DNA of 62,776 nt, filler included, from Perkinsus olseni (Eukaryota): the NCBI GenBank assembly GCA_013115125.1. It is 32 parts of 32 records of this genome, joined end to end, with 100 filler letters (N's around TTAATTAATTAA, not from the genome) between each part and the next. Parts side by side here need not be neighbours in the genome. Positions count along the whole stretch, not along the records: positions 37,812 to 39,665 come from JABANN010001715.1; 31 more parts are not named here. The stretch is one strand, 5' to 3'. The notes beneath the pieces were generated by a model. It was given only the letters and a program-made list of their open reading frames with translations. It was not told the DNA's origin and did no database searches. Below, piece by piece: positions 14,170 through 58,111 of this stretch. The stretch's first letter is position 1; each line of letters opens with the position of its first letter. A program made the translations under genes and the position numbers.

Positions 14170-14247
14170 TCCACACTGGCGTAATGGTAGAGCGCGCGGT
14201 TGGCACTCACGAGGTCGTGGGATCGATTCCCACGTAAGGTGTTTTTT
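14170..14247 (+). pseudogene. tRNA-like element (A box, B box, T6 terminator) with non-pairing acceptor stem
   Basis: TGGCGTAATGG A box, GTGGGATCGATTCCCAC T-arm, then GTTTTTT; 5' TCCACAC cannot pair with 3' TAAGGTG. Confidence 0.65.
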
Positions 14248-22425: not shown

Positions 22426-22979
22426 GGGTAATTCCCAAAATCCAAGGGAGGAGTACAAAATCCAAGGAAGCGTTTTCAGGGATCTGCATTACCTGGGCAA
22501 TAGTTCGGGTTTCTGGTTGACCTGGGTAACAGTTCCGGGATCGGGTTGCCCTGTCCGGGATCGGGTTGCCCTGCCCGGGATCGGGTTGCCCTGCCCGGGA
22601 TCGGGTTGCCCTGGGTAACAGTTCCGGGATCGGGTTGCCCTGCCCGGGATNNNNNNNNNNNNNNNNNNNNNNNNNNNNNNNNNNNNNNNNNNNNNNNNNN
22701 NNNNNNNNNNNNNNNNNNNNNNNNNNNNNNNNNNNNNNNNNNNNNNGGATCGGGTTGCCCTGGGTAACAGTTCCGGGATCGGGTTGCCCTGGGTAACAGT
22801 TCCGGGATCGGGTTGCCCTGGGTAACAGTTCCGGGATCGGGTTGCCCTGTCCGGTTTCAAGAGGGGTTTCTGGTTTCCCGTTCCTGCCTTCATCCGCAAT
22901 CCAGGGGTTTTTTTCTGTTGCTTTTGCCCCCCTGTCGCACGCGCTTCCTTGGATTTTGTACCTTTTTTGTACTTCACTC
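22426..22979. mobile_element. Non-autonomous Mutator-like element with 9-bp TSD and internal minisatellite
   Basis: TSD CTCCGACTA at 22417-22425 and 22980-22988; termini GGGTAA.../...TTCACTC; perfect 20-bp subterminal IR at 22453-22472 and 22942-22961; internal 29/20-bp tandem units (gggatcgggttgccctgggtaacagttcc). Confidence 0.75.
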
Positions 22980-37142: not shown

Positions 37143-38066
37143 TTTGAAAGCAAAGCTGATGATTAGCTGCTGCAGCTAATCACAATACGGCCCCTACTCT
37201 CCCTCGGTAGGACTTGCTCCCGAGGAGACATATCATAAAACCACGAATTGTTAAGTCCAGGAATACTAGTCTGTAATCACTATAACAAGACAATAGCCAT
37301 TCTGATAAGACTCATAAATATCAAACATTACCTTCGGAACAAGTACTACTAGCTCTAGGGGATTTGCCATGTCCCCTGTCATTTGATTGTGTCGGCACAC
37401 AATCAAGTAGTTCCATCATAGTACACTCAGCCTACTGGGCTGAGCCCAGTAAGAAACTCACTATCCCCGAGCGCAGACTCGAGGACAGACACCATTGATA
37501 TATGCACATCATTGCAGATCAACGTCGTCTCCGTAGCGATATCAGGCAAAGCATTCCTCGACGAGGAGTCTTCGTGGTTTCGTCCTGCCGATCCCACCGC
37601 AAGGGACCAACTTCTAGAGACCCCCCGCGTTGTAGCTATAAGCTACTAGCTCTCTGAGGCAGCAAAAGTTTTGCTACATCACTAAGATGGAGTTTTGCTG
37701 CAAAAGCCCTCNNNNNNNNNNNNNNNNNNNNNNNNNNNNNNNNNNNNNNNNNNNNTTAATTAATTAANNNNNNNNNNNNNNNNNNNNNNNNNNNNNNNNN
37801 NNNNNNNNNNNGTTGCAACTTCAGCAACTGCAACTTCATGAAGTTGCAACTGAAACCTTGAAGTTGAATTAGGTGCAAACCCTAAACTGAAAGAGAGATC
37901 GGACCGTAGAGTCCAATCGAGTACAGATCCAATTAGATAATCCTATCGAATCCTTAGAGAATCCAGTAGTTCAATCAATAGAGCTCGCAGAAATAGAACG
38001 AAACCGCCCGTTTCAGATATCTGGGACGCTCGCTTACTTAGTTGCGCGGCAGCACACTCAAATTCT

Positions 38067-38205
38067 GAATGGTCTAAAATCCAAGGAGAATGGTACAAAA
38101 TCCAAGGAGAATGGTACAAAATCCAAGGACTGCCCTTATGTATTCCTCCGGTTCCGGGCTGCCTTGGGTTACAGTTCCGGGATCAGGTTGCCCTGTCGGG
38201 TTCCG
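38067..38205 (+). repeat. Relic of the same repeat family as 22426-22979
   Basis: Three 21-bp units (gaatggtacaaaatccaagga) followed by gggttacagttccgggatcaggttgccctgtc. Confidence 0.8.
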
Positions 38206-38267
38206 CCTTCCAAGGAAGTCGTCGATTTCCTCCTCCATCTACGTGCATCTACGTCCATCTCCATCTC

Positions 38268-38347
38268 CGTCGTCATTCCTTGTTTGATCCTAATTGCTCG
38301 CTAGACGCAAAAGCCCAACTAAGGTCTTGAGCCAAGATGGCTACGGA
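38268..38347 (-). ncRNA. Spliced-leader RNA-like locus (22-nt SL exon 38347-38326), no GT donor; 3' end approximate
   Basis: TCCGTAGCCATCTTGGCTCAAG matches the perkinsid/dinoflagellate SL; downstream TTGGGCT pairs with GGCTCAA; a second stem TTGC..GCAA follows. Confidence 0.8.
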
Positions 38348-39765
38348 TTATATACGGAATAATACTGAGCATGCAACTCATCGCAACACTTTAAATTCGG
38401 CATCATCAACTCGGACAGTTTCACAGCCAGCCGTTTCGGAGCCGTCCCATAGGATATCCAGGGCGCCAGATCTGCGCACGCCACAGACCCTACCTGACGA
38501 CCAGTAATGGCGGGGACGTCGAACACCAGCTGAGACACCAGTAGCGACAGAGATGCGCATCCCAACACGAGAGGGAAGCGGCTCATCTATGAGACTGTCT
38601 TCGGTCTCATCACCTCTTACCATTCCTTCTCTGCGCCAGAAATGTACTACTCTTGGGGCCAGCACAGTGCCCAGTCTGTAGGAAGGACACAGTCTATGTC
38701 CTGCCGTCGAGCTGCTTACCTCGGAAAGAGTTGCGTGGCACGTACGACACCTTCAACTGAGTACAGGAATCATTCAGGAGCTGAATTTGAATGAACGACG
38801 GGAAAAAGGTTGTTGTTGACTTACGCGAAGCCGCACTAACTACACTTAGAGGGACACTGCTCATGGCTGATGCTCAGCCAGCTCCTCTCGTTTTGATGAG
38901 TAGAGAAGCTTCAGCTCAATGTTGTAGACGTTGCTGAGTTGCTTGCTCAGCTCCTTCGGCAGTACTTTCCCGTTTTCGTGTTGCTTCCCTTCCATGGTGA
39001 TGTGAGGATTACTGTACGAAGTAGTCTTTCTAACTTTTCCCTCTTGCCGCTCAGTCATTTTCAAGTGGGGAATTGGTTCTCTCGTCGCAGAATCATCCTT
39101 TCTCATGATGAGAATCTCATTCTAGACCGTATCATAGCTCGAGAAGCTCACAACTTGCTGTTCTTCCCTTATTCCCTTTTCAACCACTAATTTGTAACCG
39201 TTACAAAAGCGCGTTACGCGCGTTACGGACCAGTGAACGCCGAAAAACGCGCCACGCGTTTTTCTTAGTACAGCGCGTTACGCGCTGTGCTACAACTCGG
39301 CAAGTTGAACTTGCAGCCTACAAAGCTTGTAGTACAAGCCATGCAGCACATTTTGGAAACCAAAGTTTGGCCATTATCAACTATCGATGAGCCAGCGAGT
39401 CCACTTCTGTATAAGCGGTCACACAGCGGTTCCTCCATGTTCGCGGCTCAACGAAAACACCGCCTGTTCCTACCTCGGGGAACTTCCGACAACGCGACCG
39501 ACATTCTGCGGTACGAAAGGTTACATAAGTTCCTAAACTGTGCAAAACTCAACACACTGTGATCGGTCTGTCAGACCGAGCCTATTGTAACTCTTACAGG
39601 GTGTTCCAATTCGATATGCAAATCACAAAAATCAGTCTAATTCAGCACATACTACGTGTTTGAGGNNNNNNNNNNNNNNNNNNNNNNNNNNNNNNNNNNN
39701 NNNNNNNNNTTAATTAATTAANNNNNNNNNNNNNNNNNNNNNNNNNNNNNNNNNNNNNNNNNNNN

Positions 39766-40249
39766 GACCCGCTCGAGCGGAGATCCGCAAGGCTCGTCCG
39801 CAGTCCATCACCAGTTTGTGTGAGCTGTTGTCCCGGTATGTTGCCGACAAATCTGGTAATCTGCTATTGGTGCGGTAGCTCCATTAACTCCGACCGATGT
39901 ACCTGACCCTACCAAGGATATGATGAATAAGTTCGCCGAGCTTATCGAAGGAGTTCAAGAGACTCAGACTCGACAAATGGAACGAGTATGTGCTATGTTG
40001 GGTACTATCGCTAAGGACATCAGCACTCCGGCCAAGGCCATCGTACAACCCCAACCGCCTACTAATCCTAGGCAGTTCCGTAAGGTCAAACGGTGTGGTA
40101 TTTGTAGCGGACCACATTGGACTATGGAGTGTAACTTTAAGAAGTTCGATAAGGGGTGTGCGCTGTGTAGCGACGAGTCACATCTAGCCCGTAACTGTCC
40201 CCTACGTGCTCAGATTGTGAATTCTCTGACCGCGGGTCAGGGAAACTAG
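39766..40249 (+). mobile_element. Ty3/Gypsy-like gag 3' end (apparent indel near 39860)
   Basis: CGICSGPHWTMEC and CALCSDESHLARNC knuckles; ends QGN*. Confidence 0.85.
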
Positions 40250-40280
40250 ATGTTCGGCCGGACTGTGGCGACCGGTCGAA
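40240..40280 (+). promoter_or_regulatory. -1 programmed ribosomal frameshift signal
   Basis: G_GGA_AAC heptamer at 40240-40246, 6-nt spacer, 9-bp stem TTCGGCCGG/CCGGTCGAA; the -1 frame is open into the protease. Confidence 0.88.
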
Positions 40281-41605
40281 GGATGTCCTATCCCTATGGA
40301 CTCATGGTGAGTCTACCGGCAGTTTTATTTATGCCCGCCTATCTATACCTAATTCGATTTCTCCGGTCATGAAGGCTCTCATCGATGGTGGTGCTCGCAT
40401 CACCGTCGTACGTCGTAAATTTTTGCCGACCGGTACGATATTGACTCCTACTCTAACTAATGCGGGTAGTGCTGATCCTAATGGCGTTATACCGTTGTTG
40501 GGCTCAGCTACTGTACGATTGCATTTGTATGATTCCCCTAGCGGATCTTCCGGTCAACCGCCGCCGGTCGGAGATCCTTGTATGAGTTTTGATTTTATGG
40601 TTTATGTCGTCGAAGACCTGATATGCGATATGCTTCTGGGATTTGATTTCTTGTGGCATTTTGGTCTTAGCCTTCAGATGGAAGACGAAGGGGTTCGGGT
40701 TGTTTGTACTCGCCGACCGCTGACTCCTGTTGCGAGTGCGATACCCGTAATGCGCAACCCCACCCCTACTGTTCTTCCGTATTTGGCCTTATCTTCCTGT
40801 GCTTCTAGCTCCGGTGCTGACCGTTCTGTACTTAATCGGTCAGCCATGACTACTTCCTGTACGGCGACTACGGTATCCCTGACCTCTACTGAGCAAGCCA
40901 TGGTGCGTGATGTGGCTGGTGCTGAAGCCTCTGTGCTACGAGATTCTGCCGTCCAAGCTGACCTTATGACTGACCGTTCAGTTCAAACTGACCCGGTGCA
41001 TCCTCCTCAACGCCGTGCTGATTCCGTTCCGCCCTCTGATGGCGATACTGCTCTTCGACGCCAAGACTCTCTCAAACGGTGCCACGGTAACGTTGATGAT
41101 AATCTGAATGACTGCCCTGCTGCTCCCGAGGACTGGGGTGACCCTGAGAAGAACACGGTTCCTCTTACGGAAGCGCCTATTCGAGCACTATATCCCCCAG
41201 TAGCCCGACCCTCTGAACTGCCTGCCTCCGTTAACTGCAATGAGCTGACCGACCCTGGCTTCACTTCGACTGACTGGGGTGAACCTGAGCGGACCGTAGT
41301 ACCGCACACGGAAGCGCCTATTTTAGCACTAAATCCCCCGGTCTCTTACGCCCCGTACGATGATCCCAAGGTTGGTCACTACACTGACTTTAAGCCGTGG
41401 CCCGATGCTGATGGTTTCGTCGAGGACGAGTTCGCCGATGACGATATAGGAGGCGACTTGGATAATTACGCTATCCCGAAGCTACCTGGTCCTGATGATC
41501 CTGTTTATGTCATGCCGGATATCCCAACCGTTGAGAAGCCCGAGCTGAAGCCCGTTGCGGATCTGTGCGACCAGTTTAAGGAACTCTTCCGCAGCAAGCT
41601 CGGTC
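40243..41605 (+). mobile_element. Ty3/Gypsy-like pol N-terminus (protease and spacer)
   Basis: ALIDGGA, DMLLGFDFL, LCDQFKELFRSKLG; internal duplication DWG(D/E)PE..VP.TEAPI.AL.PPV. Confidence 0.85.
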
Positions 41606-57472: not shown

Positions 57473-57554
57473 GACACTTTGGCCGAGTGGTTAAGACGGC
57501 GGCCTGGTAAGCCGTTGGGCTCTGTCCGCGAGGGTACGAATCTCTTAGGTGTCG
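57473..57554 (+). tRNA. tRNA with a Ser-type body and a GGT (Thr) anticodon, probably a pseudogene
   Basis: 82 nt; acceptor GACACTT/AGGTGTC+G; anticodon stem GCGGC/GCCGT with loop CTGGTAA; long variable arm; T-loop TACGAAT and a D-stem mismatch. Confidence 0.75.
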
Positions 57555-58037: not shown

Positions 58038-58111
58038 TACCCGATGCAGGATTCGAACCTACGACCATCTGCTCCGTAGGCAGACATTTTATCCAGCTGA
58101 ACTAATCGGGC
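58038..58111 (-). tRNA. tRNA-Arg(ACG)
   Basis: GCCCGAT/ATCGGGT+A acceptor, TCTGC-CTACGGA-GCAGA anticodon arm, GTAGG-TTCGAAT-CCTGC T arm; D-stem has one mismatch. Confidence 0.85.

Follow-up and report, generated by a model that had tools for sequence, protein, structure and literature searches.

An intact spliced leader (SL) exon that is followed in genomic DNA by AC, in place of the GT donor of an SL RNA gene, raises the question of what the locus represents: an SL RNA gene that has degenerated, the head of an SL-capped mRNA that was retroposed, a working RNA that does not donate its exon, or a true SL RNA gene obscured by an assembly error. Such an exon is present in a stretch of DNA of 62,776 nucleotides (nt) from Perkinsus olseni (assembly GCA_013115125.1), referred to here as the window, within the contig JABANN010001715.1. 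Based on comparisons with contigs of public sequencing runs, with metagenome loci and with published SL RNA genes, we consider it probable that the locus is a dead, donor-less SL-like ('pseudo-SL') copy of a genomic DNA repeat, likely derived from a degenerated SL RNA gene that differed from the present L- and S-type genes of P. marinus. A previous interpretation of the letters alone (the sequence-only reading) had proposed the body of an SL RNA gene rather than a retroposed mRNA, being either donor-dead or a non-donating SL-like small nuclear RNA (snRNA). Its views that the donor is dead and that a gene body is to be preferred over a retrocopy are upheld by the present analysis, while its use of a retained hairpin as evidence, the novelty which it implied and its snRNA option are not.

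The SL-like exon and its surroundings

A single copy of the 22-mer TCCGTAGCCATCTTGGCTCAAG, free of mismatches, is present in the window at 38347..38326 (minus strand), and none of 100 shuffles of the window contained a match to it, even when three mismatches were allowed. The sequence-only reading had given these letters correctly as a perfect 22-nt SL followed by ACCTTAGTTGGGCTTTTGCGTCTAGCGAGCAATTAGG, though it had assigned no strand. When compared with the L-type SL exon of P. marinus, ACCGTAGCCATCTTGGCTCAAG, the 22-mer is identical at 21 of 22 positions: positions 2-22 are those of the published L-type SL (PmaSL1), while position 1 is T and that of the functional SL is A. A search of the window for additional SL copies using a 15-mer with up to three mismatches returned five matches against 1.83 expected, the four others carrying three mismatches each, and the S-type SL 20-mer had no match in the window.

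Directly 3' of the exon the minus strand reads ACCTTAGTTGGGCTTTTGCGTCTAGCGAGCAATTAGG, with AC at 38325-38324 in place of the GT donor. The segment AGTTGGGCTTTTGCG, located at +6 to +20 past the exon (38306..38320, minus strand), holds a UUGGGCU arm together with a CT4G tract. On the 5' side, TATATAA abuts the end of the exon (38354-38348, minus strand), and TTTAAA, which had been placed some 50 nt upstream, is located 43-48 nt 5' of the exon (38395..38390, minus strand); both motifs are part of a 5' flank that is common to a repeat family, as described below. The sequence at the internal AG of the SL-like exon is CCATCTTGGCTCAAGACCTTAG.

The window is composed of 32 contigs arranged in falling length from 1920 down to 1810 bp, joined by linkers of 100 bp (N44-TTAATTAATTAA-N44), a chain of unrelated contigs that had previously been overlooked. 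The SL-bearing contig covers 37812-39665 (1854 bp) and, as the sequence beyond its linkers is not a real neighbour, findings on neighbourhood that cross a linker are void. The contig is itself a repeat mosaic, with a tandem repeat of three 21-nt units (38067-38129), a piece of a 29-nt satellite (38147-38202) with 83-90% matches to an array in the contig at 22052-23933, and short low-complexity repeats (38234-38268), all on the downstream side of the SL. Apart from the satellite piece, no further copies of these repeats were found among the window's 32 contigs.

The AC junction

The reality of the AC was assessed by comparing the SL contig with contigs of four public runs (X1, X2, X7 and X10), the kinds of which were guessed ('DNA?'); X7 is RNA by guess only and its depths were not used as evidence, while the kind of X10 is not on record. 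Among runs recorded as RNA, none was listed as containing the stretch. No variant letter or indel at 38306-38347 is reported in the contigs of these four runs. The AC junction is bridged, with at least 31 letters on either side, by X2 record 20 (38281-38587) and X7 record 26 (38281-38493), both of which represent the main variant of the repeat family, and the exact window version is found in two overlapping X1 contigs, 38100-38328 and 38316-38545, with 0 differences each. AC is consequently present after the exon in contigs of X1, X2 and X7, and an assembly error as its source is very unlikely; X1 or X2 may be the sample behind the assembly, which makes this a confirmation of the reads and not a fully independent one.

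SL trans-splicing begins with an attack on the GU right after the exon, and for this reason the SL-like copy cannot donate its exon, in line with the previous suggestion of a dead donor. AC is not known to serve as a 5' splice site.

A high-depth repeat family around the exon

Contig depth separates the segment around the exon from the remainder of the SL contig. In X1, the contig at 38316-38545 (record 5) has a depth of 1580.5, compared with 82.9 and 88.4 for the adjoining contigs (38100-38328 and 38558-39622, respectively), and in X2 the contig at 38281-38587 has a depth of 680.7, compared with 43.7 and 53.5 on either side. Exon-containing contigs of X1 and X2 are therefore 13 to 18 times as deep as their flanks, a figure to be read as a rough multiple and not as a copy number. 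The high-depth contigs extend unbroken for 198-240 nt upstream of the exon, and the 5' flank common to the family, as deduced from contig depth, spans 38348..38613 on the minus strand, with loose ends at 38613 in both X1 and X2, the point at which other copies diverge from the window. The common 3' flank, deduced from contig alignment, spans 38281..38325 on the same strand. The repeat unit is thus the exon with approximately 240-266 nt upstream and approximately 45 nt downstream.

The main variant of the family, represented by X1 record 4 (depth 1341.7), X2 record 20 (depth 680.7) and X7 record 26, departs from the window copy only around 38297-38305, by three letters and three gaps (indels at 38297-38304), and six differences separate 38307-38366 from a further X2 contig, 5076 nt in length. 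All family copies seen read AC after the exon. As the likeness between copies crosses the 5' end of the exon, the family has spread by duplication of DNA rather than by separate retro-insertions; capped mRNAs that had been inserted separately would have nothing in common upstream of the exon, and the sharing of both flanks consequently argues for spread as DNA. This sharing is a new observation of the present study.

A separate observation concerns the 5' flank. At 38493|38494, contigs of X7 and X10, from two studies, depart from the window sequence and continue with an identical string of 30 letters. The contigs of X1 and X2 run on through this point, which on the minus strand reads ..GTCAG|GTAGGG and is located directly after an AG. 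The departure could represent the splice acceptor of a longer transcript with the SL-like exon 146 nt inside, or a strain difference; runs labelled as DNA may contain it too, and it was given no weight beyond that of a lead.

Comparison with functional SL RNA genes

Functional SL RNA genes of Perkinsus and other perkinsozoans (PMC3101222; Alacid et al. 2022, PMC9399869) have exon positions 2-22 in common with the window locus, including the Sm-like site AUCUUGG, but are reported to possess GGTA, GT, a conserved intron, a 3' poly-T tract and A at +1, all of which the window locus lacks. Perkinsozoan genes are described as keeping the GGTA motif at the cut (PMC9399869); neither this motif nor a GT donor is found directly after the window exon, where AC stands at 38325-38324. 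The L-type intron of P. marinus starts with GTAGATATCAGGTCCTCTCGCTA, which corresponds to primer PmaSL-LNF3 (PMC3101222), and when this sequence was compared with the 3' flank only 6 of 23 positions agreed in register, no more than chance would give (rank 21 of 58). True Perkinsus SL RNAs are given as 80-83 nt long with a poly-T tract at the end (PMC3101222), while no such tract is found near +58 to +61 of the window locus, the sole T-run being the CT4G at +13 to +18.

The retained hairpin on which the sequence-only reading had relied can indeed be drawn, with GGCUCAA pairing with UUGGGCU through two G-U pairs, yet it carries no weight as evidence. The 83-nt fold has a predicted energy of -20.5 kcal/mol, compared with -18.75 +/- 3.07 for shuffles (z -0.57; equalled by 59 of 200), and folds of 43 nt (z -0.12) and 61 nt (z -0.04) are each equalled by 88 of 200 shuffles.

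No match at the SL locus was obtained with Rfam at gathering thresholds, where the window yields only a U6 snRNA gene and three tRNA genes. The U6 gene is full-length and is located at 30444-30546 on the plus strand (108.4 bits, E 2.4e-27), followed by a run of six T residues. No upstream motif is common in register to the SL locus and this U6 gene. A candidate trace of the true L-type intron, the 7-nt TAGCGAG matching its reverse complement, was set aside: about 0.1 such matches were estimated by chance, and the main family variant is without it.

A metagenome locus with a possibly related intron

Metagenome contigs were scanned for the 21-mer CCGTAGCCATCTTGGCTCAAG, which returned 57 loci (L001-L057), or 46 groups once near-duplicates were merged; the same 21-mer had no match in viral contigs. 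The 21-mer is followed by GT at three loci (L002, L007 and L044), by AC at four and by CC at 17.

Among the 57 loci, L044 provides the best match to the 60 nt past the window exon (score 20, the next locus scoring 18; 16/5000 shuffles). The match is placed at equal distance from the exon in both sequences and reads AGTTGGGCT[TT/GC]TGCG at +6 to +20, with 13 of 15 positions in register. Over the first 25 nt after the exon L044 again ranks first of 57, with 14 positions in register, followed by a locus with 10. Agreement of at least 14 of 25 was observed in 25 of 1596 pairs of metagenome loci, at least 12 of which, identical at 25 of 25 positions, are duplicate loci.

L044 has the appearance of a genuine SL RNA gene. 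The putative gene (L044:600-660) consists of A plus the 21-mer, GTAC and a CT5G tract at +31, with a length of about 55 nt, and a tRNA-Asn gene is found 230 nt downstream of it (L044:889-962). A long stem is predicted, formed by ACCGUAGC with GCUGCGGU and by GGCUCAA with UUGGGCU (z -1.5, equalled by 14 of 200 shuffles). The window locus resembles L044 in possessing one stem arm that pairs with GGCUCAA. Relative to L044, the inner arm is kept, the outer arm is short by one base (UGCGU for UGCGGU) and GT is replaced by AC. This in-register match would support the body of an SL RNA gene, and not an mRNA, behind the exon, and weakly favours descent from such a gene. A second metagenome locus with GT, L007 (T-start, GTAT, CT5G at +20), may be another SL RNA gene.

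Relation to known SL-like and pseudo-SL sequences

Donor-less SL-like copies are already known from Perkinsus and from dinoflagellates, contrary to the novelty that had been implied for the locus. Besides SL RNA genes, represented by seven sequences of the L type and 42 of the S type, the genome data of P. marinus are reported to contain SL-like copies in "over 100 genomic sequences", of which more than 60 carry PmaSL1 and more than 40 PmaSL2, "but no recognizable intron downstream" (Zhang et al. 2011, PLoS One 6:e19933, PMC3101222). According to the same report most of these started with T, and the SL-like types tested gave no clear product by 3' rapid amplification of cDNA ends (RACE) or RNA blot. 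Numerous genome-encoded 22-nt SLs are also mentioned by Joseph et al. 2010 (PMC2868825). The window locus corresponds to the P. marinus sequences in its PmaSL1 exon, its T at position 1, the lack of GT or a recognisable intron and, judging from contig depth, its multicopy nature; the copies of the published class are described as lying in tandem arrays (PMC3101222).

Among these, the window locus resembles the L1-like type, for which primer PmaSL-L1-like-F1 (CCATCTTGGCTCAAGATCTTAGTG) was designed (PMC3101222); the primer matches the window locus with two mismatches and, together with the SL, points to a Perkinsus as the source. Both have the motif A-Y-CTTAGT (A[T/C]CTTAGT) right after the exon, and seven of the first eight post-exon nt agree, whereas the 3' flank of the window copy diverges beyond these eight (11 of 23 nt in register, tied best of 58).

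In the dinoflagellate Fugacium kawagutii, 13 donor-less "SL-like" genes have been termed pseudo-SL genes and are reported as transcribed, at levels like those of real SL genes (Song et al. 2019, Microorganisms 7:171, PMC6616646). As at the window locus, the SL has been kept and the intron donor lost, which the authors judged to make them unspliceable; they differ in that they comprise several tandem SL relicts and start with TCG and not TCCG, while the window locus has one perfect exon (PMC6616646). Our literature search found no description of this exact subfamily or of AC after a perkinsid SL, though literature beyond the search may hold one.

Proposed origin and decay of the family

The family carries a perfect L-type SL exon with T-start instead of A, but neither GU as 5' splice site nor the SL RNA intron of the species nor a terminal poly-T. 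Most likely it was founded by an SL RNA gene of older type that had degenerated, in which the first intron stem arm would have survived as AGTTGGGCT, while GT would have turned into AC and the outer stem would have been lost. The copies have spread via duplication of a segment comprising the exon, approximately 250 nt of 5' flank and approximately 45 nt or more of 3' flank, and not through repeated retro-insertion of capped mRNAs. The sequence, the lack of donor, intron and ORF, the high-depth flanks and the agreement with the published class are direct observations; that the SL-like copy is silent or without function, and that its ancestor was an SL RNA gene, we infer.

Several points weigh against this account. 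The match to L044 is short, with a p of about 0.005-0.1 estimated after 57 comparisons, the value depending on the treatment of the in-register constraint, and is at most suggestive. The depth ratios derive from runs of guessed kind. A perfect exon and near-identical copies could also reflect function, gene conversion or very recent spread. The intron GTAGATATCAGGTCCTCTCGCTA is that of P. marinus, and the SL RNA intron of another Perkinsus species may differ from it. Concerning expression, the tests described by Zhang et al. covered SL-like subtypes other than that of the window (PMC3101222), and the SL-like genes of Fugacium are reported as transcribed (PMC6616646), which makes it unsafe to regard the window copy as silent.

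Alternative explanations

The alternative that survives best, although we consider it unlikely, is that the locus represents the head of a retroposed SL-capped mRNA which was later copied together with the flank of its insertion site and, in the window copy, was cut from its coding region by a rearrangement. SL-tagged retrogenes of dinoflagellates were reportedly described by Slamovits and Keeling in 2008. The base rate is in favour of this explanation: 54 of the 57 metagenome loci are without GT after the 21-mer, and of the 56 loci in which a base precedes it, 41 have T at that place. Furthermore, among the 41 non-GT representatives for which 300 nt or more of downstream sequence is available, 28 have an open reading frame (ORF) of at least 100 codons that starts within 200 nt, and relict-SL strings stand right after the full SL in several loci (e.g. 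L040 and L048). Metagenome loci with a long ORF or a relict SL are known SL-tagged retrogenes. Most environmental copies of the 21-mer lie directly 5' of a long ORF, which, with the 17 loci that have CC and the relict-SL strings, points to frequent recycling of retrogenes among organisms with the ATCTTGG form of the SL. Retrogenes and SL exons within genes are also reported for P. marinus (PMC6050394; PMC3101222), and a DNA-encoded SL without a donor, as at those 54 loci, is given as a feature of dinoflagellate SL-tagged retrogenes (PMC6050394; PMC12014239). Two features of the family itself may be counted on the same side, namely that the window copy leaves the main variant around 38297-38305, such that the part downstream may not be the family's, and that X7 and X10 contigs join other sequence to 38493 after a minus-strand AG, a possible splice acceptor of a longer transcript.

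The window locus nevertheless differs from these retrogenes in lacking an ORF, a relict SL and, within the contig, a poly(A) trace, and in having copies that are alike upstream of the SL, over about 240-266 nt. The first downstream ATG (38276) opens an ORF of 35 codons plus stop (38169..38276, minus strand), the stop of which (38171-38169) falls inside the satellite piece at 38147-38202, in agreement with the previous statement that the only nearby ATG closes after about 35 codons within a repeat; the longest ORF downstream of the exon, in a second frame, has 54 codons. The contig ends 514 nt downstream of the exon, and a coding region may lie farther away; neither a poly(A) trace nor a target-site duplication was seen in these 514 nt, a distance shorter than a full mRNA. 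Fourteen ORFs of the locus were compared with Pfam and gave no match. An 81-amino acid (aa) ORF on the minus strand (38341-38586), which has its stop TAG inside the SL exon and a start that is signal-peptide-like by eye (MSRFPLVLGCASLSLLVSQLVF), has no relative among proteins of 44-142 residues. The 3' flank was also considered as a relict SL (CCATCTTGGCTCAAG-like), a possibility rejected at a score of 8 (equalled by 4389 of 5000 shuffles; rank 35 of 58), which is at the level of shuffles. The best match to the flank is an SL RNA intron (L044) and not an untranslated region, and the A[T/C]CTTAGT motif is common to the L1-like type of Zhang et al., while unrelated mRNAs would not share it. With no usable ORF, Pfam family, protein relative or relict SL, with both flanks common to the copies and with the match to L044, the body of an SL RNA gene is preferred over a retroposed mRNA, as the sequence-only reading had proposed.

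Considerably less probable still is a working family of non-donating SL-like small RNAs with an Sm-like site and cap signals, acting for example as a decoy or regulator of trans-splicing, perhaps as an RNA of about 40 nt with a CT4G end. The perfect exon, the invariant AC and the retention of both flanks in many copies would agree with such a role, as would TATATAA and TTTAAA upstream. However, TATATAA abuts the exon, and a TATA box in that position is closer than usual. The identity of the copies is explained equally well by recent duplication, the fold is no better than that of shuffles, no in-register upstream motif is common with the window U6 gene, and the contig consists of repeat debris. 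With its CT4G at +13 to +18 the locus conforms to the CT4-6G/C pattern reported for the ends of perkinsozoan SL RNAs (PMC9399869), and donor-less Fugacium loci are described as transcribed like real SL genes (PMC6616646), against which stands the report of no clear RNA from the SL-like types tested by Zhang et al. (PMC3101222). At this locus, no evidence for the non-donating snRNA of the sequence-only reading was found. A more elaborate version appears equally improbable, in which the CAAG|AC family of approximately 13-18-fold depth would be a working non-donating class of perkinsid SL-like RNA derived from an older, L044-like SL RNA gene of dinoflagellate length, made either as a short CT4G-ended RNA that competes for cap enzymes or Sm proteins, or within a longer spliced transcript of which it would form a module (38493).

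A true SL RNA gene with GT, or with AC as an unusual donor, is barely credible despite the perfect exon and the precedent of a non-canonical GC donor noted for one Karenia SL RNA (PMC3101222), as AC in the run contigs comes close to refuting it and the species' intron, the poly-T end and the A at the first position are all absent.

Implications

The dead, donor-less copy that we favour matters little as a discovery, given that elements of its kind have already been described in Perkinsus and dinoflagellate genomes. It does call for caution when genomes are annotated: perfect SL copies in DNA do not, as a rule, mark SL RNA genes, GT following in only three of the 57 environmental loci. Regarding the decay of SL RNA genes, it provides a case in which copies have spread as DNA with both flanks in common, and its intron trace, being unlike the present intron of P. 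marinus, hints at an extinct or unsampled type of SL RNA gene. If the family were expressed, it would have a bearing on the regulation of trans-splicing.

Other features of the window

The SL contig is repetitive at either end: 39548-39665 has a summed X1 contig depth of about 9,000-35,000, compared with 88 for the single-depth part, and 37812-37884 has about 4-fold depth. Neither end has a further copy in the window. The contig that contributes the related satellite array holds arrays of 20- and 29-nt units at 22491-22849, e.g. GGATCGGGTTGCCCTGGGTAACAGTTCCG in 3.6 copies with 100% matches. On the contig placed next in the window (39860-41605, plus strand), two CCHC knuckle-like motifs and a D-G-G stretch present in the ORFs suggested, by eye, a possible gag and protease of a retroelement; the sole Pfam match of these ORFs was to the zinc-knuckle end of eIF3g, at 27 bits, and the 470-aa ORF had none. 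The three tRNA genes identified with Rfam are located at 14170-14241 and 57473-57554 on the plus strand and at 58038-58111 on the minus strand.

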